From positions 2,432,001 to 2,496,000 of the forward strand of contig CBDCSU010000006.1 of assembly GCA_965221775.1 (NCBI GenBank): a stretch of DNA of 64,000 nucleotides, in the 5' to 3' direction. The notes under the pieces are model-generated. The model was not told the origin of the DNA. It did not search any database and saw nothing but the letters and a program-made list of their open reading frames with translations. The first letter of the stretch is position 1, and each line of letters starts with the position of its first letter. Positions 26,072 through 41,978 of the stretch are shown piece by piece. A program made the translations under genes and the position numbers. The stretch comes from Candidatus Latescibacterota bacterium. GTDB taxonomy: Bacteria; Latescibacterota; UBA2968; UBA8231.

Positions 26072-27670
26072 ATGGCCAGCACCGCCCTGTCCCGCCCTCT
26101 CCTGTCCCTCCTTCGAGCCGGAGTTCTCCTGTCCCTGAGCGCCACCGCCGCGGTGGCGCAGACGGAGTTCCCCTTCGCCGCCGGCACCGACGCTGCCGGC
26201 CGGGCCGAGGCGGTGAGCGATTCCGCCGGCCAGGTGATGATCGAGTCGCCGGAGTTCCCCCGCGGCCTGTGGGTGGAGGTGGTGGATGAGACTGGGCAGG
26301 CGCTGGCTGGCATCGAGGTTGAGTACCAGGGCCGAGCCGACAGCCTGGTGGTCATCTGGGTCGTCGACCCGTCCGGCCTGCGGCAGGAGACGCTGCAATG
26401 GAGCCGCCCTGCGGGGGATTCCCTGCACCTTGCCCTCAAGGCTGCGGACCCCGCTCACCTGCCACCGGAACTGGCTTCCGTTGACTGGCGGATCGACCCG
26501 GCCGCCGAGGAACTTCCGATGCTGAACCCTGTGGAAGGGCCCCGACTCGCCGGCTGGGGGGACTTGACGGCCATCCTCCAGGAGCGCTGGCAAGGCCACA
26601 CAGGGCGGGTGGTGGTGCAGGTCGACAGCACTGCCCTGGCCGTGGACTTGTCCCACCCGGAGGCGGTAGAGAGGCTGGTCGACTACCTGGAGAGGCGCTT
26701 ACCTGTACCGGGAGAAGAGATAGCGTCCTTTGTACAGGTGATCCTGGCTCCACGAACATTCGAGAGAGAGCTTGCTCTGCTCGACGACTCGATCGCCCTC
26801 ACCACTTCCTACGTGCTGGTCCCGGGATCCGATCTGGAAGAATGGGTATTGGCGGGGCTCGGTAGGTCCAGCGGTCCGGTCACCTTGTCGGAAGCCGTGG
26901 CGGTGACATGGCTCGGACTTCGGTTCCGGCAGATCGTCGACATCAGCCCCCTGGCCGCCTTGACCAACTTGGAAGGGCTGGACCTGAGTTGGAATCGGAT
27001 CGTCGATGTGAGTCCTCTGGCCGCCTTGACCAACTTGGAAGAGCTGAGGCTGGCTCGCAACGAGATCGTGGAAGTGAGTTCTCTGGCCGCCTTGACCAAC
27101 TTGGAACAGCTGAGGCTGGAGTACAACCAGATCGTGGATGTGAGTCCTCTGGCCTACTTGACCAACTTGGAATGGCTGTGGCTGAAGGACAACCAGATCG
27201 TGGATGTCAGTCCTCTGGCCTACTTGACCAACTTGGAAGGGCTGGACCTGCATTGGAATCGGATCGTGGATGTGAGTTCTCTGGCCGCCTTGACCAACTT
27301 GGAAGGGCTGAGGCTGAGTTGGAACCAGATTGTCGACGTGAGTTCTCTGGCCGCCTTGACCAACTTGGAAGGGCTGGACCTGGGTTGGAATCGGATCGTG
27401 GAAGTGAGTTCTCTGGCCGCCTTGACCAACTTGTGGGAGCTGAGGCTGGAGTACAACCAGATTGTCGATGTGAGTCCTCTGGCCGCCTTGACCAACTTGG
27501 AAGAGCTGAGGCTGGAGGGCAACCAGATCGTGGATGTGGGCCCCTTGGTGGCCAGTCCCGGCCTGGGTGAAGGTGATACCATACATCTGAGCGACAACCC
27601 ACTCAGCGACGAGGCCATCAACGAACAGATCCCCGCCTTGGAAGCACGGGGTGTCCAGGTGGACTACTGA
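26072..27670 (+). CDS. Secreted internalin-like leucine-rich repeat protein 1
   Basis: Signal peptide (AVA-Q), N-terminal domain shared with LRR2, about ten 22-aa LRRs, cap GLGEGDTIHLSDNPL. Confidence 0.92.
   Translation: MASTALSRPLLSLLRAGVLLSLSATAAVAQTEFPFAAGTDAAGRAEAVSDSAGQVMIESPEFPRGLWVEVVDETGQALAGIEVEYQGRADSLVVIWVVDPSGLRQETLQWSRPAGDSLHLALKAADPAHLPPELASVDWRIDPAAEELPMLNPVEGPRLAGWGDLTAILQERWQGHTGRVVVQVDSTALAVDLSHPEAVERLVDYLERRLPVPGEEIASFVQVILAPRTFERELALLDDSIALTTSYVLVPGSDLEEWVLAGLGRSSGPVTLSEAVAVTWLGLRFRQIVDISPLAALTNLEGLDLSWNRIVDVSPLAALTNLEELRLARNEIVEVSSLAALTNLEQLRLEYNQIVDVSPLAYLTNLEWLWLKDNQIVDVSPLAYLTNLEGLDLHWNRIVDVSSLAALTNLEGLRLSWNQIVDVSSLAALTNLEGLDLGWNRIVEVSSLAALTNLWELRLEYNQIVDVSPLAALTNLEELRLEGNQIVDVGPLVASPGLGEGDTIHLSDNPLSDEAINEQIPALEARGVQVDY
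26969..27562 (+). repeat. Nine tandem 66-bp LRR-coding units
   Basis: Near-invariant ctggcc(gcc/tac)ttgaccaacttg frame every 66 nt. Confidence 0.97.
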
Positions 27671-27685
27671 CCCGCCCCCACCGCC

Positions 27686-27905
27686 CCCCTCCTGCCAAAG
27701 GAGCCCCGCCATGCACCTTCGACTCATCCTCCTCACCGCCCTGCTGCTGACCCCCCTGCCCGCCCTCGGCATCGGCTACGTGTACACCGGCGTCGGCGAC
27801 GACGGCCGCCAACACCTGGAGCTGACGTCGGTCACCGTGGACGTGCGCATCGACCAGCGGGTGGCGCGCCCGCGCACCGACCAGATCTTCACCAACCATG
27901 CCGAG
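27686..27905 (+). repeat. Direct repeat copy 1 (RBS plus first 65 codons of the VIT-vWA gene); copy 2 at 29773-29992
   Basis: 220 bp, 12 mismatches by hand count, offset 2087 bp. Confidence 0.95.
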
Positions 27906-27929
27906 GGTTGCTGGCAAGATGACGTTTGA
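27711..27929 (+). pseudogene. Truncated 5' stub of the VIT-vWA gene
   Basis: MHLRLILLTALLL...IFTNHAE, then unrelated GCWQDDV-stop. Confidence 0.9.
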
Positions 27930-28004
27930 CAGGAATTCTCCTCCGCGCCGGCACTCGGCCTTGTCTGCGATCCGGCAATCCCGGCTCTCGCCTGGCACCA
28001 CTCC

Positions 28005-29762
28005 ATGAATAGAGACACACCACGCCGTCCTCCCCTGCCATCCCTCCTTCGAGCCGTAGTTCTCCTGGCCCTGGCCGCCACTGCGGCGGCATCGCAGACG
28101 GAGTTCCCTTATGTCGCCGGCACCGACAGCAACGGCTGGGCGCAGGCGGTAAGCAATGCCGCTGGCCGAGTGCTGATCGAGTCGGCGGAGGTACCCCGTG
28201 GCCTGTGGGTGGACCTGATGGATGAAGGAGGGCAGCCGCTGGCCGGCATCCAGGTCGAGCACGAGGGCCATGGCTTCCTTGGCGCCGGTCTCGAATACTG
28301 GGTGATCCTTCGCTTCGTCGATCCGGCGGGGCTGCGTCAGGAGGTGCTGCTGTGGACTCTCGCACGGAGCGGCACATCCTACACCACGGTTGACGACGTA
28401 GATCCCCTGCTCCTGGAGCTCGGACCTGTAGAGCCCGTGGACCTGCCGCCGGGGCTGGCCTCCATTGAGTGGAGGATTGACTCAGGCGTGTATCTGGAGA
28501 ACTCAAGCCGGCTGGCGGGCTGGGGTGCAGTGGAGGCCTTTCTGCAGGAGCGGTGGAAGGGGCAGGGAGGGCGGGCCGTGGTCAAACTGGGGTTACCCGG
28601 AGCAGAGCGAGACGGCCGTGCCATCGGTGTCGATCTGGATCGGGTGGACGCCTTGGAGACCCTGATGAAACACTTGGAGGGAACGTATCAGCCCGTGACC
28701 GGACCCTTGGCGTCCCTGCCTCTCTTCTTCACCGCACGTGGAAGGAGCATCGCCTCCTGGAGAAAAGGGGTGTTTCTTGGTGTCTCTCCGTTTGAGGACG
28801 AGTCGCTGGACTACGCGTTATACCTGCGTCACCTGGACTCCATTGAGAAAATCACTTCCCTTGATAGCCTCAGAGCATTCAATTCAGGGGTCCATAGTCT
28901 GGCCGGTGTGGAGCACCTGGTCAACCTGGCATACCTGGACCTGGAAAAGAACGATGTTGTCGATTTGAGCCCGCTGGTACCTCTGATCAACTTGAGGTGG
29001 CTGTCACTACTTGAGAACGAGATCGTCGATGTGGGTCCCTTGGCCGCCTTGACCAAACTGGAACGACTGGACTTGGGAAAGAACCGGATCGTCGATGTGG
29101 GTCCCTTGACCGCCCTGACAAAGTTGAAGGTACTGTCCCTGTGGCAGAACCGGATCGTCGATGTGAGCCTGGCCTCCCTGACCAACTTGGAAAGGCTGTA
29201 CCTATCGAGCAACCGGATCGTCGACCTGGATCCCTTGGCCGCCTTGACCAAGTTGGCAGTACTGCAGCTGGTGGACAACGGGATCGTCGATGTGGGTCCC
29301 CTGGCCGCTCTGACCAACCTGAAAAGGCTGTGGCTGGCGAAAAACGAGATCGTCGACCTGAGCCCCTTGGCCTCCCTGAGCCGCTTGGAACGGCTGGACC
29401 TGTGGGGGAACGGGATCGTCGATGTGGGTCCCTTGGCCTCTCTGACCAGCTTGGACACGCTGAGTCTGGCTTACGCCCGGATCGTCGACCTGAGTCCTCT
29501 GGCCGGCCTGACCGGCTTGAAAGAGCTGGACCTGTCGGGCAACCGAATCGTCGACCTGAGTCCTCTTGCTTCCTTGGCCAGCCTGGAACACCTGGACCTG
29601 CAAAGAAACAGAATCCACGACATCAGTTCCCTTGTCGCCAACGCCGGCCTGGGTAAGGGTGACTATGTGAATCTGTGGTATAACCAGCTCGATCTCGATG
29701 ACCAGGCCGTCAAGGAACAGATCGCCACCCTGAAGGCCAGAGGTGTACGCGTCTACTACTGA
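28005..29762 (+). CDS. Secreted internalin-like leucine-rich repeat protein 2
   Basis: Same leader and N-domain (QTEFPYVAGTD...PRGLWV...LAGIQVE), about twelve LRRs, same C-cap type. Confidence 0.92.
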   Translation: MNRDTPRRPPLPSLLRAVVLLALAATAAASQTEFPYVAGTDSNGWAQAVSNAAGRVLIESAEVPRGLWVDLMDEGGQPLAGIQVEHEGHGFLGAGLEYWVILRFVDPAGLRQEVLLWTLARSGTSYTTVDDVDPLLLELGPVEPVDLPPGLASIEWRIDSGVYLENSSRLAGWGAVEAFLQERWKGQGGRAVVKLGLPGAERDGRAIGVDLDRVDALETLMKHLEGTYQPVTGPLASLPLFFTARGRSIASWRKGVFLGVSPFEDESLDYALYLRHLDSIEKITSLDSLRAFNSGVHSLAGVEHLVNLAYLDLEKNDVVDLSPLVPLINLRWLSLLENEIVDVGPLAALTKLERLDLGKNRIVDVGPLTALTKLKVLSLWQNRIVDVSLASLTNLERLYLSSNRIVDLDPLAALTKLAVLQLVDNGIVDVGPLAALTNLKRLWLAKNEIVDLSPLASLSRLERLDLWGNGIVDVGPLASLTSLDTLSLAYARIVDLSPLAGLTGLKELDLSGNRIVDLSPLASLASLEHLDLQRNRIHDISSLVANAGLGKGDYVNLWYNQLDLDDQAVKEQIATLKARGVRVYY

Positions 29763-29772
29763 CCTCCGCCGT

Positions 29773-29992
29773 CCCCTCCTGCCAAAGGAGCCCCGCCATG
29801 CACCTTCGACTCATCCTCCTCACCGCCCTGCTGCTGACCCCGCTGCCCGCCCTCGGCATCGGCTATGTGTACACCGGCGTGGGCGACGACGGCCGCCAGC
29901 ATCTGGAGCTGTCGTCGGTCACGGTGGAGGTGCGCATCGACGAGCGGGTGGCGCGCACGCGCACCGACCAGATCTTCACCAACCACGCGGAG
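29773..29992 (+). repeat. Direct repeat copy 2 (5' end of the intact VIT-vWA gene)
   Basis: Matches 27686-27905. Confidence 0.95.
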
Positions 29993-32077
29993 TGGGAGGT
30001 GGAGGGGATCTACGAGTTCACCCTGCCCGAGGGGGCGATCATCACCGACCTGGTGCTGTGGATCGGGGACAAGCGGGTGCAGGGGCTGATCATGGAGAAG
30101 GAGGAGGCGCGGCAGGTCTACGACGACATCGTGCGCCAGCGGATCGACCCGGCCCTGATCGAACAGGTGACGCCGAACCAGTTCCGGCTGAGCATCTTCC
30201 CCTTCCCGGCCCAGGGCAGCCGCCGGGTGGAGTTCGAGTACATGCAGCTGCTCGACGCGCGCAACGGCCGCATCGACTACACCTTCCCGCTGGCGCCGGA
30301 GACCGACCAGGCGCTGCAGATGGAGCTGTTCGTGCTGCGCGCCCACGTGCGCAGCCAGCACGCATTTGAGGCGACCACTTCAGGCCTGCCGCGGATCACC
30401 GAGGTGGACCGGCCGGATGCGCACACGGCGAACGTGTTCTACGGCGACGAGGACCTGACGCCGCGGGAGGACTTCACCCTCAGCCTGCAGCGGACCGGGG
30501 ATCTGCTGCTGCCGACGGTGCTCAGCTTCGCGCCGGAGGAGGACGAGGCCCTGGGCTACTACGCCCTGTGGCTGCCGCCGCTGCCGGAGCTGACCGATGA
30601 GGGCCCGCTGCCGCGCAGCCTGACCTTCGTCATCGACATCTCGTCGAGCATGCAGCGGGGCAAGCTGGGGGCGGTGAAGGGGGCGCTGGTGGCGGCGCTG
30701 GAGAATCTGGTGGAGAAGGACCTGTTCAACATCGTCGTCTTCAGCCACCGGGCCGACGCCTTCGCCGCGGCGCCGGTGCCGGCCAGCGCGTCGAACAGGG
30801 AGTCGGCGGCGGCCTTCATCAACCGGCAGGACGCGTTGGGGGTGAGCAACTTCGAGGCGGGTCTCGGAAGGGCGATGCAACAGGCTTTCCCCGCCGGGCG
30901 GGTGAACCACGTCATCTTCCTCACCGACGGCCTGCCGAACATCGGCGAGATCGAGCTGGAGCCGCTGAGCGAGTTGGTGGGGCAGTGGTCGGGGGGGAAA
31001 GCGCGGCTGTTCACCATCGGCGTCGGCCGCGACGTGGACCAGAACTTCCTGACGGCGCTGGCCGAGGAGCACGGCGGGGAGGCTCACTTCCTGTCGGAGG
31101 AGGGGGACATCGAGGAGGCGCTGCGGGTGCTGTTCGAGGAGTTCACCTTCCCGGTGCTGCTGGTGGACGAGCTGTCCTTCGGCTCGGCGGACATCCATGA
31201 CGTGCATCCCCGGGGCGTGGAGGCCCTGGCCGCGGGGCGGGAACTGTTCCAGGTGGGCCGCTACCAGCAGGGCGGGCTCTTCACCCTGAGCGTGAGCGGC
31301 CAAGTGGGGGACCGGGACGTGTCGAAGGACTTTTCCCTGGAGTTCACCCATACCGACGTTTCCCTGGAATTGTTGCCTCGATTGTGGGCCTACCAGAAGG
31401 TGCTGGCCCTGGAGGAGCAGATCGCCCGCTTCGGCCCCGAGCCGGAGCTGCTCGACGACATCCTGGCCCTGGGGCTCGACTACCGCCTGGTGACCCGGCG
31501 CACGTCCCTCTTTGCCCCGGACGAGGGCGTGGAGGTCAACCCCGAGCCGCGGGACGGGGAGCCTTCCTGGGCCCCCACGGCGGTGGAGGAGACGGGACAG
31601 ACCGCCCACTGGCTGGGCCGCGACTTCGTCCTGCAGGATGACATCTGGATCGACATGGCCTACGAGCCCGGGATGCCGAGGCAGCTCTACGAGGGCCTGG
31701 CCCGTCAGCCCGCGGAACTGGCCGCCTTCGCCCAACTGGGCCAGGCCATGCTGGTGGTGTTGGAGGAGCGGGCCTGGGAGATCCTCCCCGGCCGCCCGAT
31801 CCTGCACCAGAACGCGCCCAACCCCTTCAACGCCTCCACCGTGATCCGCTTCCTGGTTCCCGTGGGACTGGGTGACGCGGAGGTCCGCCTGAGGATCTAC
31901 AACCTGAGTGGACAGGTGGTGCGGGAGCTGCAGTTGGATGCCCCCGGGGCCGGCGAGCACCGCCTGTCCTGGGACGGCCGCGACGAGTTCGGCCGGGAGG
32001 CGGCCAGCGGCGTTTACGTCTACCGCCTGGAAGCCCGGGAGTGGGCGGTGCACCGGCGCATGCTGCTGCTGCGCTGA
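29798..32077 (+). CDS. Secreted VIT + von Willebrand A domain protein with FlgD-Ig/T9SS-like C-terminal domain
   Basis: EGIYEFTLPEGA (VIT), DISSSM MIDAS, IFLTDG, FTIGVG, NAPNPFN...WDGRD...SGVYVYRL. Confidence 0.92.
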   Translation: MHLRLILLTALLLTPLPALGIGYVYTGVGDDGRQHLELSSVTVEVRIDERVARTRTDQIFTNHAEWEVEGIYEFTLPEGAIITDLVLWIGDKRVQGLIMEKEEARQVYDDIVRQRIDPALIEQVTPNQFRLSIFPFPAQGSRRVEFEYMQLLDARNGRIDYTFPLAPETDQALQMELFVLRAHVRSQHAFEATTSGLPRITEVDRPDAHTANVFYGDEDLTPREDFTLSLQRTGDLLLPTVLSFAPEEDEALGYYALWLPPLPELTDEGPLPRSLTFVIDISSSMQRGKLGAVKGALVAALENLVEKDLFNIVVFSHRADAFAAAPVPASASNRESAAAFINRQDALGVSNFEAGLGRAMQQAFPAGRVNHVIFLTDGLPNIGEIELEPLSELVGQWSGGKARLFTIGVGRDVDQNFLTALAEEHGGEAHFLSEEGDIEEALRVLFEEFTFPVLLVDELSFGSADIHDVHPRGVEALAAGRELFQVGRYQQGGLFTLSVSGQVGDRDVSKDFSLEFTHTDVSLELLPRLWAYQKVLALEEQIARFGPEPELLDDILALGLDYRLVTRRTSLFAPDEGVEVNPEPRDGEPSWAPTAVEETGQTAHWLGRDFVLQDDIWIDMAYEPGMPRQLYEGLARQPAELAAFAQLGQAMLVVLEERAWEILPGRPILHQNAPNPFNASTVIRFLVPVGLGDAEVRLRIYNLSGQVVRELQLDAPGAGEHRLSWDGRDEFGREAASGVYVYRLEAREWAVHRRMLLLR

Positions 32078-32091
32078 GGGGAACGGATCAA

Positions 32092-32123
32092 GCCTCGGCC
32101 CCTGGAGGTTCAGGGGCCGGGGC
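32092..32123. terminator. Stem-loop between convergent genes
   Basis: GCCTCGGCCCCTG-GAGGTT-CAGGGGCCGGGGC. Confidence 0.6.
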
Positions 32124-32152
32124 CGGGGGTGCGGAGGCCGGCCACGCGCCGA

Positions 32153-32410
32153 TCAGCCGGGCAATCCGCGTTCGTCGTAGAGCAGATCGCCGTGCTCGGT
32201 GGCGGAGGGGCCCGGCCCCAGGAGCCGGGCACAGCGCTCCGCGATGGCGCGCAGCTCCCTCTTGCGGGTCTCGACGCTGCGCTTCCGCTTCTCCCGCGCC
32301 AGACGTTCCTGCAGGGCCACGGTGATCGCCCGGGTCTTGGTCTCGCCGGTCAGTCGGGCGAGCTCGCCGGCGAGCCGGCAGGTCTCGTCGTTCTTGATGT
32401 TCAGGCTCAT
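32153..32410 (-). CDS. VapB-type antitoxin (Rv0623-like), no adjacent toxin
   Basis: MSLNIKNDET...LARLTGETKT...LYDERGLP. Confidence 0.88.
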   Translation of the reverse strand: MSLNIKNDETCRLAGELARLTGETKTRAITVALQERLAREKRKRSVETRKRELRAIAERCARLLGPGPSATEHGDLLYDERGLPG

Positions 32411-32459
32411 TTCTGCCCCAGTCTAAGCGGCGCCGTCACCGCGCTCCACACCATCGCAG

Positions 32460-33557
32460 TCATTCGGACGGCAGGACCGGCGCCCCCTCGCCCGCCCCCC
32501 GCACCGCCCCGGCCCCGGCGATGACCACCTCCATCGCCCGCAGGCCGTCCCGGTGGGTCACCGCGAAGGGCTCGCCGGTGCGGCAGCGGGCGACGAAGTC
32601 GGCCACCTCGGCCTTGTAGGCATTCCCGAAGCGGCGGATGAAGACGGGCACGGGCTCGCCGTAGTCGCGCAGCTCGAAGGCGTGTTTCTCGATGACCTCG
32701 TGGTCGCGGCCGAAGGCTTCCACCCGCGCCCGCAGGGGGTCCTCGTCGAAGTGGCCCACGTGGATCAGGCCCTCGGCGCCGTAGATGAAGGTCTCGTTGC
32801 GGTAGCCGGCGACGTGGTTGCGGCTCACCTGGATCTGGGCCGTCGCCTCGTCGCCGAACCACATCTGCACGAAGACGTCGTCGAAGTCCTCCTCCACGAC
32901 GCCGGGGATGCGCTGGTTGTGCAGGCGCGCGCCGACGCCGGTGATCGCCGTGGGCGCGCCGCCGCCGAGCCAGAGGATCTCGTCGGCGTTGTGCACGGCC
33001 ATGTCCGCCAGTAGTCCCGGGCTCTGGTAGCCCGGGGGCGGCGGCTCGGGGTCCTCCAGCACGGAGACGGTCTTGAAGAGGCGGCCGATGGCGTTGGCGC
33101 GCAGCAGCTCCCGGGCCCGCAGAAGGGCCTCGTCGTAGCGCCGCTGGAAGGCGAGCATCACCGCCCGGCGGCGGGCCTCGTCGGCCTCGAGCCAGGCCGC
33201 CAGGTCGCGGGCCTCCTCGAGGGAGTCGGCCAGGGGCTTCTCGAGCAGCACCCGGCCGCCGGCATTCACCATCGCCTCGGTGTCGCGCCGGTGGTCCCGT
33301 GTGCGCGAGGCGATGACGGCGGCGTCGGCCACACCGGCGTCGGCCAGGGCCTCCGCCGAGTCGAAGGCGGCCACCGGCTCTCGCCCGCCCTCGCTCAACC
33401 GCGCCGCAACCCGCTGCGCCGTGTCCCCGTGGCGGTCGGCCACGGCCACCAGGCGGCAGGCGCCGGTCTCGGCCCCCACCTCCTGCACGTGCCGGGCGTG
33501 GAAGAGGCCGATCCGCCCGACGCCGATGGCGGCGACTCGCAGTGGATCCGGGGTCAT
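32460..33557 (-). CDS. Gfo/Idh/MocA oxidoreductase (inositol dehydrogenase-like)
   Basis: IGVGRIG, LLEKP, FQRRYD, DMAVHNAD. Confidence 0.9.
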   Translation of the reverse strand: MTPDPLRVAAIGVGRIGLFHARHVQEVGAETGACRLVAVADRHGDTAQRVAARLSEGGREPVAAFDSAEALADAGVADAAVIASRTRDHRRDTEAMVNAGGRVLLEKPLADSLEEARDLAAWLEADEARRRAVMLAFQRRYDEALLRARELLRANAIGRLFKTVSVLEDPEPPPPGYQSPGLLADMAVHNADEILWLGGGAPTAITGVGARLHNQRIPGVVEEDFDDVFVQMWFGDEATAQIQVSRNHVAGYRNETFIYGAEGLIHVGHFDEDPLRARVEAFGRDHEVIEKHAFELRDYGEPVPVFIRRFGNAYKAEVADFVARCRTGEPFAVTHRDGLRAMEVVIAGAGAVRGAGEGAPVLPSE

Positions 33558-33573
33558 CGGGCCTGGCCCCGCC

Positions 33574-34461
33574 TCACTCCCAGTACTTGCCGTAGAGGGT
33601 CCAAAGGCGCGCCCGCGCCTCGGGGCTGATCGCCTCCGGGGCCGTGATCACGGCGAATCGGGCGGAGCCGTGGCACTCGCAGTCGGCGGCGGCCGGCAGC
33701 CGCCCCGAGAAGCTGCGCACGATGCGGCAGCCCAGCTCGGCGTTGGCCCGCAGGATCTCGACCACCGTCTCCACCGAGACGTTCTCCTCGGTCTCGTGCC
33801 AGCAGTCGTAGTCGGTGCCCATGGCCAGCAGGGCGTAGCAGAGCTCCGCCTCGCGGGCCAGCTTGGCCTCGGGGATGGCGGTCATGCCGATGACCGTGGC
33901 GTCCACGGCGCGGCGGTAGAAGTGGGACTCGGCCTTCGTCGAGAACTGCGGCCCCTCCATGCAGACGTAGGTGCCGCCTTCGTGCACGGTGGCGCCGCAC
34001 TCCCGGGCCGCCGCCGCCAGGCAGGCGGTCATCCCGCCGCCGCAGAAGGGGTCGGCCAGCGACACGTGGCCGGCGATGCCGTCACCGAAGAAGGTCGCCG
34101 GCCGCAGGCCGCGGGTGCGGTCGAAGATCTGGTCGGGGATGACCATGTCTCCGGGCCGGATGTGCTCCTTCATGATGCCCACGGCGCTCACCGCCAGCAG
34201 GTGGGTGACGCCCGCCGACTTCATGGCGTGGATGTTGGCGCGGTAGGGGACCTCGGAGGGCAGCAGCCGGTGGCCGCGGCCGTGGCGGGGGAGGAAGAAC
34301 ACGGTGCGGCCGTCGATGAGGGTTTCCACCAACAGGTCGGAGGGCGGGCCGAAGGGGGTCTCGATCTCGTGCTCGCCGACGACTTCGGCGCCCTCCATCT
34401 GGTAGACCCCGGAGCCGCCGATGACGCCGAGCTTCACGGGGGCGCCGCCGGAGGGCGTCAT
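33574..34461 (-). CDS. mtnP: S-methyl-5'-thioadenosine phosphorylase
   Basis: GVIGGSG, RHGRGH, MEGPQFSTKAES, GMTAIPEAKLAREAE, TDYDCW. Confidence 0.92.
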   Translation of the reverse strand: MTPSGGAPVKLGVIGGSGVYQMEGAEVVGEHEIETPFGPPSDLLVETLIDGRTVFFLPRHGRGHRLLPSEVPYRANIHAMKSAGVTHLLAVSAVGIMKEHIRPGDMVIPDQIFDRTRGLRPATFFGDGIAGHVSLADPFCGGGMTACLAAAARECGATVHEGGTYVCMEGPQFSTKAESHFYRRAVDATVIGMTAIPEAKLAREAELCYALLAMGTDYDCWHETEENVSVETVVEILRANAELGCRIVRSFSGRLPAAADCECHGSARFAVITAPEAISPEARARLWTLYGKYWE

Positions 34462-35357
34462 CGCTCTCGCCCCGCGCCTCCGGCGGAGAGGCCGAGCAGC
34501 CCGAGGGAGTCGCGCTCGATGATCGCCTCGATGGCGTCGGGGTCCACCCTGGGCAGCGCCGTGCCCTCGACGATGTCGTTGACGGCGCGCAGGCGCTCGA
34601 TCGACTCGCCCACCTCGGTGATCGGCCAGTCGCTGCCGAAGAGGATCTTGTCGAGGACGTTCCACTCCGAGGCCTTGACCATCTGCTCCCAGAAGGAGAA
34701 GGGCCGGTAGAAATTGGCGGAGAGGTCGGCGTAGACGTTCGGGTGCTTGCGGACGACGACGCAGGTCTCCACCTGCCAAGGGTGGCCGAGATGGGCCATG
34801 ATCATGCGCAGCTCCGGGTAGCGCATGGCGATCTCGTCGATGACGAGGGGATGGGCGTAGCGGATCGGCGCGTCCTGCACCGGCGAGGTGCCCTGGTGCA
34901 GCATGATGGGCAGGCCGTGGCGCTGGGCGTAGTCGTAGACGGCCAGGGCCCGCGGCTCGAGGGGGTCGAAGTTCTGGTAGTTGGCGCCGAGCTTGACGCC
35001 CTGCATGCCCAGGTCGGCGCGGCAGCGCTCCAGCTCGTCGAGGCAGCCGGGGTCGAAGGGGTGGACGGCGGCGAAGCCGATGAGCCGGCCGGGGTGGGCG
35101 GCGGCGAACTCGGTGACGGCGTCGTTGATGTTGCCCTGCGACCAGTCCGGGTCGGCGGGATAGGCGGCGCCCCCGGGGCTCATGGCGATGCCGAAGACGA
35201 CGGAGACCTCGGCCGGCGCCTGGCCGGCGAAGTAGTCCTGCCAGGTGGTGGTGACGTTCACGGCGCGGTCGGGGCGCCACTTGTCGTTGAGTTCGGGCTC
35301 GGCCCCCGGAGGCAGCTCCCGGTGCCGGGGCGGGTGGGTGTGGATGTCGACGATCAT
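34458..35357 (-). CDS. Amidohydrolase-2 family protein
   Basis: DIHTH, MLHQG, MAHLGHPW, LFGSDWP. Confidence 0.9.
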   Translation of the reverse strand: MIVDIHTHPPRHRELPPGAEPELNDKWRPDRAVNVTTTWQDYFAGQAPAEVSVVFGIAMSPGGAAYPADPDWSQGNINDAVTEFAAAHPGRLIGFAAVHPFDPGCLDELERCRADLGMQGVKLGANYQNFDPLEPRALAVYDYAQRHGLPIMLHQGTSPVQDAPIRYAHPLVIDEIAMRYPELRMIMAHLGHPWQVETCVVVRKHPNVYADLSANFYRPFSFWEQMVKASEWNVLDKILFGSDWPITEVGESIERLRAVNDIVEGTALPRVDPDAIEAIIERDSLGLLGLSAGGAGRER

Positions 35358-36427
35358 CGGCTCTCCTCCGGAAGGGGCAGGTCGACGCGCAGCTTGTCGG
35401 CCCACTGCCGGACCTGCCGCCAGGTCTCGTCGTCGACGGAGATGCCCTCCTTCTGCCGGCGCCGCTGCACCTGGCCCTCGATCTCGCCCGGCAGGAGGAT
35501 GCCGTCGAAGCCGGCCGCCGGCGGCGACGACTTCACGTGGGCGAAGAAGCGCTCCGCGTGGCGGTGGAACTCGTCGAGGGGCAGGAAGCGCTCCACGTCG
35601 AGGGCGATGAGCAGGACGCCGTTGCCGAGGGGCTGGCCGCCGCCGATGCAGCCGGTGCCGCTCAGGGCGCCGGCGAGCAGCTCCAGGGCGACGTTGAGGC
35701 CGTACCCCTTGTGGCCGGCGGCGCTGCCGCCCAGGGGCAGGATGCTGCCCCGCGGCTCCCCGTAGAGGACGTTCGGATCCGTCGTCGGCCGGCCCTCCGC
35801 GTCGATCAGCCAGCCTTCGGGGACCGGTTCCCCGCGGTTGCTCTGGACCCGCACCTTGCCCTCGGCCACCACCGTGGTGGTCATGTCGAGGACCACGGGG
35901 TCGCCGTCGGAGCGCGGGGCCCCGAAGGCCAGGGGGTCGGTGGCGAGGCGGGCCTCGGTGCCGCCCCAGGGGGCCATGCGGTAGGCGGGGATGCCGACGG
36001 CGTTGACCAGGAGCAGGGCCGCCAGGTCGCGGCGGGCGAGGCGCTCCACGTAGCTGCCCAGGCGGCCGATGTGGCTGGCGCCGCGCACGGTGACGGCGGC
36101 GAGGCCGTGGCCGGAGGCCTTCTCGGAGGCGAGTTCGACGGCCCGGGTCATGGCCACCTGGCCGAAGCCCCAATGGCCGTCGAGGACGGCGGTGATCGAC
36201 GTCTCGCGCGCGACCTCGACCTCGGCGGCGGGATCGATGCGGCCGTCCTCGATGGCGGCGAGGTACTGGGGGACGCGGATGAGGCCGTGGGAGTCGTGGC
36301 CGGCGCAGTTGGCCTCGGCGAGGAGGCCGGCCACGGTGCGCGCGTCCTCGGGGGAGGTGCCGGCGGCGGCGAAGAGAGCGGCGGCGGCGTCGGCGATCTG
36401 GTCCATCGTCAGGGTCGGCATGCGCAT
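35354..36427 (-). CDS. Ldh_2 family oxidoreductase
   Basis: GHDSHG, DGHWGFGQ, HIGRLG, GHKGYGL, LLPGE. Confidence 0.92.
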   Translation of the reverse strand: MRMPTLTMDQIADAAAALFAAAGTSPEDARTVAGLLAEANCAGHDSHGLIRVPQYLAAIEDGRIDPAAEVEVARETSITAVLDGHWGFGQVAMTRAVELASEKASGHGLAAVTVRGASHIGRLGSYVERLARRDLAALLLVNAVGIPAYRMAPWGGTEARLATDPLAFGAPRSDGDPVVLDMTTTVVAEGKVRVQSNRGEPVPEGWLIDAEGRPTTDPNVLYGEPRGSILPLGGSAAGHKGYGLNVALELLAGALSGTGCIGGGQPLGNGVLLIALDVERFLPLDEFHRHAERFFAHVKSSPPAAGFDGILLPGEIEGQVQRRRQKEGISVDDETWRQVRQWADKLRVDLPLPEESR

Positions 36428-36491
36428 AGAATCGGGGGTGGCGCCCCCTTCGGCAACGGCCCCCGGCGAACCGCTATATTCCCACCCCCCC

Positions 36492-38921
36492 ATGCCGACG
36501 GACACCGACACCCTCGTACAGATCCCCGTTCGCGACCTGGTCGCCTTCGTGCTGCGCTCCGGCGACCTGGGGTCCGCCTTCCTCTCCGCCAACCGGGCCG
36601 TCGAGGGCACGCGGGGCCACCGCTTCGTGCAGGACCAGCGGCCGGAGGAGTACCGCAGCGAGGTGCCGGTGCGCTGCACGGTCGACGCCGGCGGCTCCCT
36701 CTCCCTGCAGATCACGGGGCGCGTCGACGGCGTCCTCCACGACGGCGGCGACCTGCTGGTGGAGGAGATCAAGACCACCTACGGCGCCCTCGAGGAGCGC
36801 CCCGACAACCCCCTGCACTGGGGACAGGCCAAGACCTATGCCCACATCCTGGCGCGGGACCTGCGGCCGCAGCGCGTCGAGGTGCGGCTCACCTACGTGC
36901 AGCTCGACAGCGGCCAGGTGCTGGAGGACGGGCGCCCCTTCACGCCGGAGGAGCTGGCCGCCTTCTTCGACGATCTCGTGGGCCGCTACCTGCACTGGGC
37001 CCGGGCCTGGCACGAGTGGTGCGGCCGGCGGGACGCATCCATCGCGGACCTCGCCTTCCCCTTCCCGGAATACCGCCCCGGCCAGCAGGAACTGTCCGAG
37101 GCGGTGCGCGAGACGATCGCCTCCGAGGGGCGGCTCTTCGCCATGGCCCCCACCGGCATCGGCAAGACGATGTCCGTCCTCTTCCCGGCGGTGCGGGCCC
37201 TGGGCGAGGGCCAGGTGGAGAAGGTCTTCTACCTCACCGCCAAGACCAGCGGCCGCACCGTGGCCGAGAGCGCCCTCGACGACCTGCGCGCCTCCGGCCT
37301 GCGCCTCAAGTCGTGCACCATCACCGCCCGCGACCGCATCTGCTTCAACGCCCGCGGCGGCCGCCCCTGCGACATGGAGACGTGCGAGTACGCCCTCGGC
37401 TACTACGACCGCGTCAACGACGCCCTCGAGGACGCCTTCCGCACCCACGACGACTTCACGCGAGCCCACATCGAGGAGACGGCCCGCAAGCACACGGTCT
37501 GCCCCTTCGAGCTGGGACTCGACCTCTCCCTGCTATCCGACGTCCTCATCTGCGACTACAACTACGTCTTCGATCCCAAGGCCTATCTCAAGCGCTACTT
37601 CCTCGAGTCCAGCGGCGACTACGCCTTCCTCGTCGACGAGGCCCACAACCTCGTGGAGCGCGCCCGCGACATGTACTCGGCCGAGATCCGCCGCGGCGAG
37701 GTGCGGGCCATGATCAAGGCCCTGGGCGAATCGCAGCCGGCCATCGTCCACGTCCTCGGCACCCTCGACCTCTACCTGGCGGCCCAGGTGCGCCGCTGCG
37801 ACGACGAGGGCGACGGCCGCGGCTGGCTGGACCGCGAGCCCCCCGAGGACCTGCTGCCCCTGCTTACGCGGATCCAGGCCGAGATCGAGCCGGTCCTGGC
37901 CAGGAACCGTCCGGCGCCGTGGCGCGAGGCTTTGACCGACCTGTTCTTCACCATCGCCGCCTTCCTGCGCGTGGCCGACCTCTTCGACGGCCGCTACGTC
38001 ACCTACGGCGAGAAGCGGGGCCGCGGCGACCTGCTGCTGCGCCTGTTCTGCCTCGACCCGTCGGGCCGCATCGGGCAGTCCCTCGAGCGCGGCCGCTCGG
38101 CGACCTTCTTCTCCGCCACCCTCACCCCCCTCGACTACTTCCGCCGGCTCCTCGGCGGCGGACGCGAGGACTTCGCCCTGCAGCTCGACTCGCCCTTTCC
38201 GCGGGAGAACCTGCTGGTCATGGTGGCCGACCACATCGACACCAGCTACCGCGGCCGGGGCCGCTCGTATGACGACGTGGCCGCCGCCATCGCCGCCGCC
38301 GTCGGCGGGCGCCGCGGCAACTACATGGTCTACTTCCCCTCCTACAAGTACCTGCAGGAGGTGCTGCCGCGGTTCGAGGCCGTGGCGCCGCCCGGCACCC
38401 TCGCCATGGCCCAGCTGCCGGGCATGAGGGAGGCGCAGAAAGAGCAGTTCCTCGGCCTCTTCCGGGTCGACAATCCGACCACCGTCGTCGGCTTCGCGGT
38501 CATGGGCGGCATCTTCGGCGAGGGCATCGACCTGGCGGGGGAGCGCCTCGTGGGGGCCGTCGTCGTCGGCGTCGGCCTGCCGCAGATCTGCCTGGAGCGG
38601 GACCTGATCCGCGGCTACTACGACGAGGAGGAGAACGCCGGCTTCGCCTACGGCTACGCCTACCCGGGGATGAACCGCGTCCTCCAGGCCGCCGGCCGCG
38701 TCATCCGCTCCGACACCGACCGCGGGCTGCTGCTGCTCGTGGACAAGCGGTTCTCGCGCGCCGACTACCGGGAGCTGTACCCGCCGTCCTGGGGCTCGCC
38801 GCGGGTCACGCGCAGCGACGCGGCGATCCGCGAGGAGGTGGGTGCCTTCTGGGGCGGCACCGCGGCGCCGGTGGTTGCGCCGTCGAGCCTGTTTGAAGCC
38901 CGCCCGGGAGGAACCCCGTGA
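36492..38921 (+). CDS. DinG/XPD-type Fe-S DNA helicase with N-terminal PD-(D/E)XK nuclease-like domain
   Basis: GRVDG...EEIKT, APTGIGKT, four Cys (ICF, PCDMETC, VCPF), DEAHNL, FSATL, QAAGRVIR. Confidence 0.92.
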   Translation: MPTDTDTLVQIPVRDLVAFVLRSGDLGSAFLSANRAVEGTRGHRFVQDQRPEEYRSEVPVRCTVDAGGSLSLQITGRVDGVLHDGGDLLVEEIKTTYGALEERPDNPLHWGQAKTYAHILARDLRPQRVEVRLTYVQLDSGQVLEDGRPFTPEELAAFFDDLVGRYLHWARAWHEWCGRRDASIADLAFPFPEYRPGQQELSEAVRETIASEGRLFAMAPTGIGKTMSVLFPAVRALGEGQVEKVFYLTAKTSGRTVAESALDDLRASGLRLKSCTITARDRICFNARGGRPCDMETCEYALGYYDRVNDALEDAFRTHDDFTRAHIEETARKHTVCPFELGLDLSLLSDVLICDYNYVFDPKAYLKRYFLESSGDYAFLVDEAHNLVERARDMYSAEIRRGEVRAMIKALGESQPAIVHVLGTLDLYLAAQVRRCDDEGDGRGWLDREPPEDLLPLLTRIQAEIEPVLARNRPAPWREALTDLFFTIAAFLRVADLFDGRYVTYGEKRGRGDLLLRLFCLDPSGRIGQSLERGRSATFFSATLTPLDYFRRLLGGGREDFALQLDSPFPRENLLVMVADHIDTSYRGRGRSYDDVAAAIAAAVGGRRGNYMVYFPSYKYLQEVLPRFEAVAPPGTLAMAQLPGMREAQKEQFLGLFRVDNPTTVVGFAVMGGIFGEGIDLAGERLVGAVVVGVGLPQICLERDLIRGYYDEEENAGFAYGYAYPGMNRVLQAAGRVIRSDTDRGLLLLVDKRFSRADYRELYPPSWGSPRVTRSDAAIREEVGAFWGGTAAPVVAPSSLFEARPGGTP

Positions 38922-38959
38922 GTGCGGCACCCGCCCGGCGCGCCATCGTCGCCGGCATG
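38918..38959 (+). repeat. Vestigial 5' stub of the AlkP-family gene; 38928-38959 is identical to 40081-40112
   Basis: cacccgcccggcgcgccatcgtcgccggcatg occurs twice; VSAAPARRAIVAGM versus MSTSPARRAIVAGM. Confidence 0.93.
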
Positions 38960-38982
38960 CACAGATTCAACTGTCCGGGAGA

Positions 38983-40059
38983 ATGAAGATGAAAGTCGGA
39001 AAGTTCATGATGCCGTTGCATCCGCCGCAGAAGGACCGCACCCAGACCTTCGATGAAGACATCGAGTGCGTGTTGTGGGCCGAGGAACTGGGCTTCAGCG
39101 AAGCCTGGATCGGGCAGCACCACACCGCCACGTGGGAGCCGATCCCCGCCAACGATGTGTTCATCGCCCACGTCCTGCCGCAGACGGAGAGGATCCGGCT
39201 GGGCACGGGGGTCACCATCATGACCCAGCATCATCCGGCGAACGTGGCGGTTCGTCTCGCCTATCTCGATCACCTGTCCAAGGGACGGATCAACGTCGGC
39301 TTCGGGCAGGGGGGCGTGCCGACGGACTGGCCGCTCTTCGATTTGCCGGACCCGCGCATCCAGGGTCTGATGAACCTGGAGGCGATGGACATCGTCCTGA
39401 AACTGTGGACGGAAGAGGGTCCCTTCGAGTTCAAGGGGGATTACTGGAACGTCACCATGGCGGAGAGAGTCCCCGAACTCGGGCTGGGGGAGGTGCTGAA
39501 GCCGTATCAGAAGCCGCATCCGCCGATCGCCATGAGCATCGTCAAGGAGGAATCGATGGCAGCCACCACGGGCGGCCGGCGCGGGTTCCTGCCGATCAGC
39601 ATCAACATGGCGCCCTTCCACAAGGTGAAACGGCATTGGGAGGTGTACTGCGAGGGGGCCGCGGAAGGGGGCCGGCCCGAACCGGACCGGCGCGACTGGC
39701 GGATCTCGCGCAGCATCTGCGTGGGCGAGACGGACGCCGAGGCGCGGGAACACGCCCTCGGCGGCGCCTTTGCGGACTCGCTGGTCTACCTTCGCGGCAT
39801 GCTCGGGATCGCCAACATGCTGGACCTGCCCAAGAGGGACCCGGACATGTCCGATGCCGACCTCACGCGCGAGTACTTCATCGACGAGATCGCCATCGTC
39901 GGCAGTCCCGACACGGTGACCGCGCGCCTGCAGGAGCTGTACGACGTGACCGGCGGTTTCGGCACGGTGCTGATGATCGGCCACGACTGGGACGACAAGG
40001 CGAAGATGAAGCGCTCCATGGAACTGATGGCGAAGGAAGTCATCCCACGTCTTCCATAG
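38983..40059 (+). CDS. Luciferase-like (LLM) flavin-dependent oxidoreductase
   Basis: AEELGFSEAWIGQHH, IRLGTGV, LDHLSKGR, PYQKPHPP, VGSPDTV. Confidence 0.93.
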   Translation: MKMKVGKFMMPLHPPQKDRTQTFDEDIECVLWAEELGFSEAWIGQHHTATWEPIPANDVFIAHVLPQTERIRLGTGVTIMTQHHPANVAVRLAYLDHLSKGRINVGFGQGGVPTDWPLFDLPDPRIQGLMNLEAMDIVLKLWTEEGPFEFKGDYWNVTMAERVPELGLGEVLKPYQKPHPPIAMSIVKEESMAATTGGRRGFLPISINMAPFHKVKRHWEVYCEGAAEGGRPEPDRRDWRISRSICVGETDAEAREHALGGAFADSLVYLRGMLGIANMLDLPKRDPDMSDADLTREYFIDEIAIVGSPDTVTARLQELYDVTGGFGTVLMIGHDWDDKAKMKRSMELMAKEVIPRLP

Positions 40060-40070
40060 AAAGAGAGCCA

Positions 40071-41978
40071 ATGAGCACGTCACCCGCCCGGCGCGCCATC
40101 GTCGCCGGCATGGACGGCGCCAGCATGGAGCTGGTGAAGCGCCTGGCCGAAGCCGGCCACATGCCCAACGTGCGCGCCCTGATGAATGCGGGCGTCTGGC
40201 GCCCGATGGTCGGCGTCTTCCCCACCCTCACGCCGCCGGGCTGGACGGCCCTGTCCACCGGCTCGTGGCCGGGGACCCACGGGGTGATGGACTTCAACAT
40301 CCGCCACGTGGGCGAGGGCCTGGACCGCACCCTCTGGGGGATCGACACCTCCCTGTCGCGCTCGGAGTACATCTGGAACGCCTTCGAGCGCGGCGGCAAG
40401 AAGCCGATCCTGGTGAAATGGGAGATGTCGTGGCCGCCCACGGTGCGCCAGGGGGTGCAGGTGGAGGGCACCGGCCCCGGCGTCTCCAACCATCACCAGG
40501 TGGCCGGGTACCACCTCTTCGTGGGCGGCAAGTGGGCGCCGCGGCGGCTGGAGGCCCAGCGCGACCCGGAGACCCTCGACCCGAGCGCCCTGCAGGGGGT
40601 GCGCGAGTTCGATCCCGTGACCCTGGAAGAGGCCCGCGGCTGGATGGGACTGCCCGCCTCGAAGCGGATGCCGAAGGAGGCGGCCCTCACCATCCAGCCC
40701 CTGGCCAGGGGCCGCGAGGAGATGAACCGCGGCCGGGAGGGCACGCCGATGCAGCTGCACGCCCTGATCTACGCCAGCGGCCGGGGCGGCTACGACCGAG
40801 TGCGGATCTGCCGCTCGAAGAACGCGGGCCGGCCCCTGGCCGACCTCGGCGTGGGCGAGTGGAGCGACTGGTGGCTGGACCGCTTCGAGATCGACGGCCG
40901 CAAGGTGCGCGGATACGTGCGCGCCAAACTGATCACCCTGTCGGCGCGGGCCGACGCCTTCGAGCTCTTCATCCCCCAGATCTGGCCGCCCGACGGCTAC
41001 ACGAAGCCGGCCTCCGTGGCCCGCGAGATCGACCGCCACGTGGGCAACTTCCTGCAGAACCCGGCCCGCGACGCCCTCGGCCTGATCGACGACGACACCT
41101 ACTTCGAGCTGCTCGAGTTCCACCACGAGCGCCTCGCCGACGTGGCCGAGTACCTCGCCGGCTCCCGGGACTGGGACCTGCTGATGACGGAGACCCACGC
41201 CTCCGACTACACCAGCCACTTCTTCCTGCGCGCCGCCGATCCCCACTCCGGGGCGCCGCCGTCGGTGCAGCGGCGCTGCCGCGAGGGGGTGGAGCGCACC
41301 TACGCCTCCATCGACCGCTGGATCGGCCGCCTGCGCCGGCTCGCCGGCGACGACACCGCCTTCTTCGTGGTCTCCGACCACGGCGGCACCTCGCAGCAGC
41401 ACACCGTCGTCAACGTGGCGGCGGTGCTGGAGCAGGCTGGGTTCCTGAAATACGAGGGCCGCGGCCGCAACCGGCGCATCGACTGGACGCGCACCCGGGC
41501 GGCCGATGTGGGCCTCGTGCACATCTTCGTGAACCTCAAGGGGCGGGAGCCCGGCGGCATCGTCGATCCCGGGGACTACGACGCCACCTGCCGGGAGATC
41601 ATCCAGGCGCTCCACGACTACAAGGACCCGGAGACGGGGCGGCGGCCTTTCGCCCTCGCCCTGACCCGCGAGGACGCGGAGATGGTGAACCTGTGGTCGG
41701 ACCGGGTGGGCGACGTGGTCTACGCCCTGCGCCCGGAGTTCGACGGCGCCCACGGCAAGCAGCTGCCCTCCGTCGCCTTCGGCATGGCCGGCCAGCACTC
41801 GACCTTCATCGCCGCCGGCGCCGGCGTGCGCCGCGGGGGCCGGCTCGACCGCCAGGTGCGCGTCATCGACGTGGCGCCCACGATCTGCTACCTCACGGGA
41901 GCGCCGATGCCGCGCGATGTGGAGGGCGGGGTGATCTACGAGGCGGTGAGGGACGTGGATTTGCACCGGGTGGGGTGA
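40071..41978 (+). CDS. Alkaline phosphatase superfamily protein (nucleotide pyrophosphatase/phosphodiesterase-like)
   Basis: GMDGA, PTLTPPGWTALSTG, VVSDHG, IDVAPT. Confidence 0.9.
   Translation: MSTSPARRAIVAGMDGASMELVKRLAEAGHMPNVRALMNAGVWRPMVGVFPTLTPPGWTALSTGSWPGTHGVMDFNIRHVGEGLDRTLWGIDTSLSRSEYIWNAFERGGKKPILVKWEMSWPPTVRQGVQVEGTGPGVSNHHQVAGYHLFVGGKWAPRRLEAQRDPETLDPSALQGVREFDPVTLEEARGWMGLPASKRMPKEAALTIQPLARGREEMNRGREGTPMQLHALIYASGRGGYDRVRICRSKNAGRPLADLGVGEWSDWWLDRFEIDGRKVRGYVRAKLITLSARADAFELFIPQIWPPDGYTKPASVAREIDRHVGNFLQNPARDALGLIDDDTYFELLEFHHERLADVAEYLAGSRDWDLLMTETHASDYTSHFFLRAADPHSGAPPSVQRRCREGVERTYASIDRWIGRLRRLAGDDTAFFVVSDHGGTSQQHTVVNVAAVLEQAGFLKYEGRGRNRRIDWTRTRAADVGLVHIFVNLKGREPGGIVDPGDYDATCREIIQALHDYKDPETGRRPFALALTREDAEMVNLWSDRVGDVVYALRPEFDGAHGKQLPSVAFGMAGQHSTFIAAGAGVRRGGRLDRQVRVIDVAPTICYLTGAPMPRDVEGGVIYEAVRDVDLHRVG

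Follow-up and report, generated by a model that had tools for sequence, protein, structure and literature searches.

Duplicated gene ends beside inserted genes in a Latescibacterota genome: candidate scars of general recombination

Integron cassettes add a single accessory gene to a genome and leave its neighbour intact. Also well known are integrative elements that carry a copy of the end of their target gene and so keep that gene whole; such an island-borne replacement end leaves a partial duplicate behind. Transposons and insertion sequences produce short target duplications (2-14 bp). This report is about two inserted genes in a 64,000-nt stretch of DNA (the window, G000:C6:2432001-2496000) from G000, the genome of a Candidatus Latescibacterota bacterium. 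One encodes a leucine-rich-repeat protein (LRR2) and the other a luciferase-like monooxygenase (LLM). Each lies between two direct repeats made of the 5′ end of the gene that follows it, which is a VIT-vWA gene (VIT) in case 1 and a gene for an AlkP-superfamily phosphodiesterase (AlkP) in case 2.

Published work on recombination without dedicated enzymes offers the closest parallels. In the account of recombinants given by an E. coli conjugation study, 56 of 60 recombinants sought as products of homology-facilitated illegitimate recombination (HFIR) were single crossovers of partly degraded, re-circularised molecules (PMC3240628). In the 14 sequenced recombinants described there, 109-950 bp of the homologous locus were duplicated, and true HFIR appeared in that account as an insertion with a deletion (PMC3240628). 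For the effector-immunity modules of Rhs, contact-dependent inhibition (CDI) and type VI secretion systems (T6SS), the passages on displaced ends explain these orphan ends by one homologous and one illegitimate exchange (PMC5361080). A literature search found no description of the pattern reported here in sponge symbionts; article supplements lay outside that search, and its result is no proof of absence.

On balance, and with modest confidence, we read both window repeats as insertion-duplication scars left by the general recombination and repair of the host, anchored on a conserved neighbour gene. A fragment would have come from a related strain or a paralogous locus, where the new gene already stood before the same anchor. 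It would then have circularised or bridged two sister chromosomes, and a single homologous crossover would have inserted it, duplicating the shared segment. The homology used would have been the leader and the first 45-200 nt of the anchor gene, together with one non-homologous joint. The expected result is a stub of the former 5′ end, followed by the new gene and then by the anchor gene in full. Recombination of one copy with the other could remove the insert again, and the process involves no enzyme, site or cassette dedicated to it.

The metagenome-derived genome G000 comprises 5.36 Mb in six contigs (C-numbers) at ~70% GC, with an estimated contamination of 7.75%. Filled and empty sites were compared in four relatives, G002, G004, G006 and G007. 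G004 is the closest of them genome-wide (92-96% identity in syntenic blocks vs ~83-95% for the other three). G019, of another genus, and G040, of another family, were also drawn on. The window is represented in sponge and marine metagenome runs, and public runs (X1, X2, X3 and X15) were compared as assembled contigs, not reads. A preliminary description of this DNA had stated that a single gene twice lies between direct repeats of the 5′ end of the next gene, and this is so (27686-27905 and 29773-29992, 220 nt at 95% identity; 38919-38962 and 40072-40115, 44 nt at 91% identity). It had further described the upstream copies as dead stubs and the downstream copies as the beginnings of intact genes; open reading frames (ORFs) and Pfam matches agree with this in both cases.

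Case 2 consists of the following features.

36069..38921, plus strand: PD-(D/E)XK / DEAD_2 helicase gene (Pfam), the last ~21 codons of which (~38856-38918) are read from the spacer of an LLM-AlkP operon
38918..38962, plus strand: repeat copy 1, the first ~45 nt of AlkP, a dead stub (repeat alignment and shuffles)
38963..38982, plus strand: LLM leader with a ribosome-binding site, homologous to the sequence upstream of LLM in operon-bearing loci
38983..40059, plus strand: LLM, a luciferase-like monooxygenase of 358 amino acids (Pfam Bac_luciferase), the inserted gene
40060..40070, plus strand: 11-nt remnant of the LLM-AlkP spacer, which is 84 nt long in G007 and ~60-400 nt in 11 plain operon loci
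40071..41978, plus strand: AlkP-superfamily type I phosphodiesterase of 635 amino acids (Pfam Phosphodiest), the anchor gene, holding repeat copy 2 at 40072-40115

The exact 32-nt core of this repeat has two matches in the window, whereas not one was obtained in 100 dinucleotide shuffles. The GC content of LLM is 64.2%, vs 71-72% in the neighbouring genes. When the segment 36800-42100 was searched against 41 genomes and the hits aligned locally, the LLM site was found to be filled in G002 and G007, with the same structure as in the window and with decay specific to each lineage. In G004 and G006 the site is empty: the helicase gene is followed directly by AlkP, and the alignments of the two query flanks overlap by 51 and 54 nt. 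The AlkP stub measures ~45 nt in G000 and ~46 nt in G007, and in G002 it reaches at least position +69 (probably ~+84) with an internal deletion of 24 nt. The spacer before the live AlkP gene is 84 nt long in G007 and 10-11 nt in G000 and G002. Because G002 keeps the longer stub and G007 the 84-nt spacer, the block duplicated originally was at least ~100-145 nt long (the spacer plus at least 69-84 nt of the AlkP 5′ end) and shrank later by deletions. In all four other genus members compared, the helicase aligns no further than residue 928-929 of 950, and a stop comes soon past an FWG/FWE motif. It is for this reason that the last ~21 helicase codons of G000 are assigned to the operon spacer. 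The stub itself has 22 codons and begins with a GTG that overlaps the stop of the helicase gene. Likewise, the TGA of the stub ORF overlaps the start of LLM (ATGA) in G000 and G007. These overlaps (38918-38986) could form a chain of translational coupling from helicase through stub to LLM, which is a possibility suggested by the layout of the codons. In G002 the stub is out of frame.

The relation between LLM and AlkP was examined in species-representative genomes. A scan for LLM returned 49 loci, of which 48 were examined, and AlkP lies immediately 3′ of LLM in 13 of the 48. Two of these 13 resemble the window in having both the helicase gene and the stub. The remaining 11 (L057-L061, L077-L080, L083 and L085) show plain LLM-spacer-AlkP with neither helicase nor stub, spacers of ~60-400 nt and a single match to the AlkP 5′ end each. 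As judged from these arrangements, LLM-spacer-AlkP is a natural operon and LLM is not a free cassette. The spacer of G007 matches that of L080 over its first ~25 nt and its last ~30 nt. Because the two spacers are homologous at both ends, the case 2 repeat is exactly the stretch common to a resident spacer-AlkP and an incoming LLM-spacer-AlkP. The 11 genomes with the plain operon are labelled Latescibacterota or Gemmatimonadota and have ~60% GC. LLM has also been found, at 78-83% amino acid identity and without AlkP, in sponge symbionts labelled Poribacteria (L062-L066 and others), and this Poribacteria LLM hints at an exchange between phyla in sponges.

The polarity of gain and loss was considered from gene trees. 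The AlkP tree groups G000, G007 and G004 in one clade (support 100/100); G006 falls outside it, its place among the operon-bearing rows not being resolved. G004 most likely lost LLM, because two of the three members of this clade share the insertion. The single spacer of G004 looks chimeric, its left part resembling copy 1 and its right part the copy 2 or operon type. Over the ~25-30 nt on which the comparison rests, it would be the expected product of recombination between the repeats. The LLM tree unites the three filled genomes in a clade (98/97) that stands beside the 11 operon rows and not within them.

Another LLM-AlkP pair occurs in G040 at 89% nucleotide identity (L030, G040:C5:2219000-2237000, 10049-13072). 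Its AlkP has ~69-71% GC, vs 45-62% in the surrounding 600-nt bins, and genes for transposases of the insertion-sequence type lie within a few kb to either side. G040 was considered as the donor and rejected, since a high-GC AlkP in a lower-GC region with transposase genes nearby marks it as a recipient. A second copy of the AlkP 3′ end (133 nt, L030 3336-3468) lies 6.6 kb away in G040 and ends at the same base. Elsewhere in the window, positions 58342-59446 match G040:C3:565747-566851 at 82% nucleotide identity, which may be another transferred segment.

Case 1 consists of the following features.

26015..27670, plus strand: LRR1, the resident leucine-rich-repeat gene, 551 amino acids (Pfam LRR_4/LRR_8)
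27671..27905, plus strand: repeat copy 1, the leader and first 195 nt of VIT-vWA, a dead stub (95% over 220 nt to copy 2)
27906..28004, plus strand: novel joint and unique LRR2 leader, matched neither upstream of LRR1 nor in six related loci; crossed by contigs of X15, X1, X2 and X3
28005..29762, plus strand: LRR2, the inserted gene, 585 amino acids (Pfam LRR), with 60.7% GC and a GC content at third codon positions (GC3) of 0.74
29763..29992, plus strand: repeat copy 2, the leader and 5′ end of the intact VIT-vWA gene (repeat alignment)
29798..32077, plus strand: VIT-vWA-FlgD_ig gene, 759 amino acids (Pfam VIT, VWA, FlgD_ig), the anchor gene

The case 1 repeat takes in ~25-35 nt of leader and 195 nt from the start of the VIT-vWA gene. 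The stub begins with the ATG at 27711, departs from the VIT sequence past 27905, stops at 27929 and has no Pfam match. It differs from the live 5′ end at 12 positions. Four of these changes are private to the stub (two synonymous, two not), one is private to the live copy, and at six or seven the live copy agrees with a VIT-vWA paralogue on contig C5 (G000:C5:720920-723268, L031). Because only four private changes are found in 220 nt, the stub is young (~2% drift). The C5 paralogue is 98.4% identical to the window gene over 1563 nt (window 29993-31555), whereas the orthologues in G002 and G007 are only 92-93% identical. This difference points to recent gene conversion between the two LRR-VIT loci of G000.

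LRR1 and LRR2 are paralogues with 73-81% DNA identity along much of their length, and their N-terminal domains share ~55% of amino acids. Across the 41 genomes, the N-terminal 318 amino acids of LRR2 reach at best 54-59% identity to any LRR protein, and LRR proteins matching this N-terminus are present in six of the genomes, G000 included. The segment 27906-28040 is without counterpart, and for the 99-nt leader within it this holds both upstream of LRR1 and in the six related loci. Going by these comparisons, LRR2 is not a recent copy of LRR1. The paralogy makes a plain recent tandem duplication of LRR1 and the VIT 5′ end the obvious reading, but as the sole cause it was rejected, because the stub is young and the LRR genes are old; the two parts show unequal divergence (95% for the stub vs 73-81% for the LRR bodies and ~55% of amino acids for the N-domain).

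The upstream flank and 5′ part of LRR1 are syntenic in G002, G006 and G007. The flank and the 3′ end of LRR1 match the single LRR gene that abuts VIT in G006, and the 3′ end also resembles the LRR genes of paralogous loci. The single-LRR arrangement of G006 stands for the unoccupied state of case 1. The joint from LRR2 through its leader to VIT is laid out like other LRR-VIT joints and looks natural, so that 27905/27906 is the sole novel joint. The VIT locus holds one LRR gene in G006, two in G002 and three in G007, all without stubs. In G019 (L033, G019:C1:292000-305000), an LRR array before VIT contains two VIT 5′ stubs of ~125 nt (~4370-4494 and ~6243-6367) with the same novel joint. Because both stubs share one joint, a stub-LRR unit may have been amplified there, as the layout suggests, by unequal crossover. 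Periodic repeats of 66 nt (22-amino-acid LRR units) run through LRR1 (26818-27645) and LRR2 (28922-29665). GC3 is low in LRR1 (0.78) as in LRR2, and reaches 0.94-0.97 in other genes of the genome.

The joints of both cases are found in assembled contigs. The joint between the VIT stub and LRR2 is crossed by contigs of four runs from four studies with 0-12 differences: X15 (27764-29802, 0 differences), X1 (27856-29802), X2 (27773-29131) and X3 (27782-28443). X15 is possibly the source run of the window itself, and the other three runs belong to three further studies. The joint between the AlkP stub and LLM is crossed by a contig of X2 (38930-39998), and that between LLM and AlkP by a contig of X1 (39517-40110).

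Is this architecture confined to the window? G000 was scanned by k-mer search for direct repeats of at least 30 nt lying 0.3-6 kb apart, which gave 915 pairs. Genes were called with a home-made, GC3-based gene finder (4342 genes), which is crude, so that the counts are a guide of lower quality. The filters required that the other copy was not a full paralogue, that the gene measured at least 450 nt and that at least one gene lay between the copies. One copy covered a predicted gene start in 64 pairs, and nine rows passed the filters: the two window cases, the LRR1/LRR2 paralogy, two internal repeats of a large surface protein, one weak row (61 nt, 82%) and three new candidates. A mirror scan for 3′ ends gave 18 rows, of which three were examined further together with one that was already among the 5′-end rows; only some of the rows of the scan were pursued in this way. 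Five more repeat-flanked insertions were thus found in G000, four with empty sites in relatives and mostly with defence-like cargo.

C4:1158.7 kb: ~130-nt repeat comprising the end of a TIM-barrel gene and the start of an amidohydrolase gene; cargo a PtuA-like ATPase and a PLD-like protein; empty in G002 and G007, filled in G004
C6:1926 kb: ~100-nt repeat; cargo two small genes on the opposite strand, one with an HTH domain; empty in G002 and G007
C5:1119.7 kb: repeat of 40 nt and a 102-nt piece from the 3′ end of an MFS gene; cargo of 3.4 kb including ThsB; empty in G004
C5:651 kb: 144 nt of the 3′ end of a Kelch gene; cargo a PDC-S01-type ATPase; empty in G006
C6:1266.9 kb (C6:1266942): 479 nt at 97% of the 3′ end of a DUF362 gene; cargo PLD-nuclease-like, 666 amino acids; no clean empty site

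The cargo of C6:1266942 was found only in G000 and G004, and the region is variable in all relatives. At a further locus, L117, a 56-nt repeat flanks an AbiEii gene, with no empty site in the four relatives searched. The cases share an anatomy in which the cargo is flanked on both sides by copies of an uninterrupted piece of the target that spans a gene end, and the gene is different every time. The cargo stands in either orientation; some cases duplicate a 3′ end and some hold two genes. The repeats measured ~100-480 nt when first formed, and one fresh case has 40 nt and a separate 102-nt piece. In G006, captured DNA seems to have been pieced together at G006:C1:2845013-2845968, where three fragments abut far from their home loci: the PLD-nuclease-like cargo of C6:1268 kb contributed two of them, and the third derives from the amidohydrolase gene of C4:1161 kb. 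At G000:C5:923100-926400, repeats of 97-100% identity are offset by multiples of ~606-609 nt in and beside the gene of a 1381-amino-acid surface protein, which is split into several ORFs; they reflect either a real expansion or an assembly problem.

Enzymes of mobile elements were sought at these sites. Pfam scans found no recombinase or transposase domain in the 13 ORFs scanned between 22.7 and 43.5 kb of the window, and no recombinase in the cargo of the other cases (30 proteins). G000 has seven matches to tyrosine recombinases, the nearest ~89 kb from the window cases. The cargo ends of the window cases carry no inverted repeats, and no motif common to the cargo ends was seen by eye in four cases. 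The features of a transposon or insertion sequence are therefore missing, with no transposase at 22.7-43.5 kb, no terminal inverted repeats and duplications of 40-480 nt. Integron cassettes find as little in their favour, given the lack of inverted repeats and the distance of the nearest tyrosine recombinase, in a comparison for which no attC covariance model was run.

That the target is a different gene in each case, that the cargo lies in either orientation and that it holds no recombinase argue for general recombination and repair rather than a site-specific system. The anchor would stay intact because a duplication that straddles a gene end leaves one whole copy, and insertions within genes would be selected away. 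A single crossover predicts contiguous target repeats of ~0.1-1 kb, and such repeats are seen: 220 nt in case 1, at least 100-145 nt in case 2 and ~130, 144 and 479 nt elsewhere in G000. Homologues of Ku and ComEC are present in G000, so that end joining and DNA uptake are conceivable there, though these two homologues lend them weak support.

The preliminary description had gone beyond the repeats and had proposed that this lineage adds genes as recombinase-free, single-gene cassettes that carry the 5′ end of a resident gene and land behind its expression signals. Much of its factual basis stands. Neither an integrase nor a transposase adjoins the cases, further cases occur in the genome, relatives with empty sites exist (G004 and G006 for LLM, and one or two of the four relatives in each of four further cases) and contigs from three further studies that bridge the junctions speak against a co-assembly of two strains. 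The cargo which it called accessory is indeed flanked as described for both LLM and LRR2, but LRR2 is no unrelated cargo, being a paralogue of the adjoining LRR1. The cassette itself finds no support. LLM belongs to a natural operon and the duplicated block is the spacer of that operon with the AlkP 5′ end. Nor is the design uniformly one of 5′ ends, since other cases duplicate a 3′ end, carry cargo on the opposite strand or hold two genes. What is left of the proposed mechanism is an architecture that is real, recurrent and free of recombinases nearby, and which is best read as a product of general recombination or repair.

Several observations weigh against the single-crossover reading. The depth of LLM in its tree is about the same as that of AlkP, so that a later arrival of LLM is not called for. 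One acquisition, with the stub made in some other way at entry and with later deletions in G004 and G006, fits as well as a two-step route, in which spacer-AlkP would have come first and LLM would have followed by a crossover. A cargo-anchor joint elsewhere, as a donor would carry it, is present for LLM in the 11 plain loci among 48. It was not found for LRR2, for which relatives were sought in genome contigs with 45 pattern matches and none confirmed, or for ThsB, for which the best of 80 loci was 71% identical and no donor context was found. The structure of the PtuA-like case on C4 argues against such a donor: the copy before the intact amidohydrolase gene keeps ~60 nt of the 3′ end of the upstream gene, and a frameshifted pseudogene copy (85%) of the downstream small gene adjoins the cargo. 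This case looks more like an in-place tandem duplication of 1.6 kb, one copy of which was overwritten. Finally, none of the 15 joints listed in assembled contigs, as opposed to reads, with 43 more outside the listing, is a circle joint or an empty-site joint, a result that has no bearing on their absence.

These points bring up in-place duplication with captured DNA as a general alternative, which we regard as a serious competitor though a rather unlikely one. Template switching, unequal sister exchange or a small tandem duplication would recopy 40-480 nt of the target, and foreign or ectopic DNA would be captured at the duplication joint or would overwrite it. Both copies would then be resident, and no donor with the same neighbour would be required. 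The C4 case suits this reading best, its two features being what a partly overwritten 1.6-kb duplication would leave. The range of one to three LRR genes at the VIT locus of relatives and the shared joint of the G019 stubs are in keeping with it, as are the LLM and AlkP trees, which give no sign that LLM is the younger in this lineage. Tandem duplications triggered by transformation are documented in the relevant part of one source (PMC3784515). The window cases are harder to accommodate. LRR2 is too diverged from LRR1 for the age of the stub, and nothing upstream of LRR1 corresponds to its leader. On its left side the case 2 repeat stops at the edge of homology to the operon spacer, which would be a coincidence if the duplication had arisen in place.

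A bolder idea, which we consider quite unlikely, is that the gene ends of these sponge symbionts serve as portable sites, with circles made by RecA that would travel between cells and re-enter by a single crossover. If it were true, it would amount to a general trade of defence genes and eukaryote-like (LRR) genes within the sponge microbiome. The full recombinase-free cassette cycle, in which the cargo would excise as a circle together with a single anchor copy and could integrate wherever a genome has that anchor, is very unlikely in our judgement. The structure is reversible, to go by the apparent loss of LLM from G004 via the repeats; the pattern recurs with accessory and defence cargo; and LLM-AlkP has moved between families, as the GC contrast and the flanking transposase genes in G040 indicate. 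Against this, the joints listed in contigs include no circle, each cargo has a different anchor and none was met at the same anchor and joint in unrelated backgrounds. Ordinary double crossover in the flanking genes would also explain the spread from strain to strain without circles.

Decayed integrase-borne islands, with the repeats as attL and attR and an integrase that brought the replacement end and was later lost or acted in trans, are highly improbable. The tyrosine-recombinase matches in G000 would suit such islands, but none lies nearer than the distance given above and no cargo gene scanned has a recombinase domain. Repeats of ~100-480 nt, each in a different gene, are unlike the core site of a recombinase; the cargo ends lack inverted repeats, and LLM stands to AlkP as an operon partner. 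An assembly artefact, in which co-assembly of strains or a collapse between the two VIT loci made the stubs, could appeal to the metagenomic origin and contamination estimate of G000 and to the near-identical VIT paralogue on another contig, yet its probability is close to negligible given that contigs of four studies (one maybe the source) cross 27905/27906, that both LLM joints are bridged as well and that G002 and G007 share the filled LLM structure with decay of their own; the structure is probably no artefact.

Scars of this kind record the entry and exit of accessory genes in a compact genome, that of an uncultured sponge symbiont, without the enzymes of mobile elements. The genes concerned include eukaryote-like LRR genes, defence genes and a metabolic operon partner. 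LLM-AlkP emerges as a two-gene operon that moves between families of one phylum. If such scars are common in genomes from long-read metagenomes, they would be a cheap marker by which to date and polarise gene gain and loss. They could also help to locate hot spots beside conserved genes and to separate gain driven by recombination from gain driven by integrases.

How do the window cases compare with described systems? They differ from integron cassettes and integrase islands in that no integrase lies within 89 kb, no hairpin or inverted repeats mark the cargo ends and the repeat differs from case to case. With HFIR they share a homologous anchor and an illegitimate joint that together bring foreign DNA beside a conserved gene, as far as the relevant passages describe it (PMC3240628; PMC5361080). 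HFIR in its classical form combines an insertion with a deletion in the recipient. Here the empty sites in G004 and G006 (LLM), in G002 and G007 (two cases), in G004 (ThsB) and in G006 (PDC-S01) reveal a duplicated target in place of a deleted one, for which a circle or two sister chromosomes would be needed. The orphan modules of Rhs, CDI and T6SS are similar in that a new module at a conserved part of a gene displaces the old end as a dead fragment and that arrays arise by repetition, in the portion of the literature that treats them (PMC5361080). In those modules, which are toxin tips, the 5′ anchor is conserved and 3′ ends are displaced, whereas ordinary genes are involved here and 5′ ends are displaced in the window cases; some 3′-end cases occur elsewhere in G000. 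In the section on the lpl genes of Staphylococcus aureus, the evolving unit likewise spans gene boundaries (a 3′ half, the intergenic region and the next 5′ half), and the LRR-VIT locus likewise gains and loses LRR genes (PMC2568036). Exchange in lpl runs, in that section, through the conserved centre of paralogues (PMC2568036), whereas the joint here is marked by a piece of another gene, the downstream VIT. Single-crossover (Campbell-type) insertion-duplication differs in its setting, which in the E. coli recombinants described was a laboratory plasmid construct; here the insertions are natural and fixed, the stubs have decayed and the circle is one we infer (PMC3240628). Those recombinants share with the window cases the flanking direct duplications, the one non-homologous closure joint and the independence from a dedicated recombinase, and the repeats here (~100-480 nt when formed) fall within the 109-950 bp range given there (PMC3240628).

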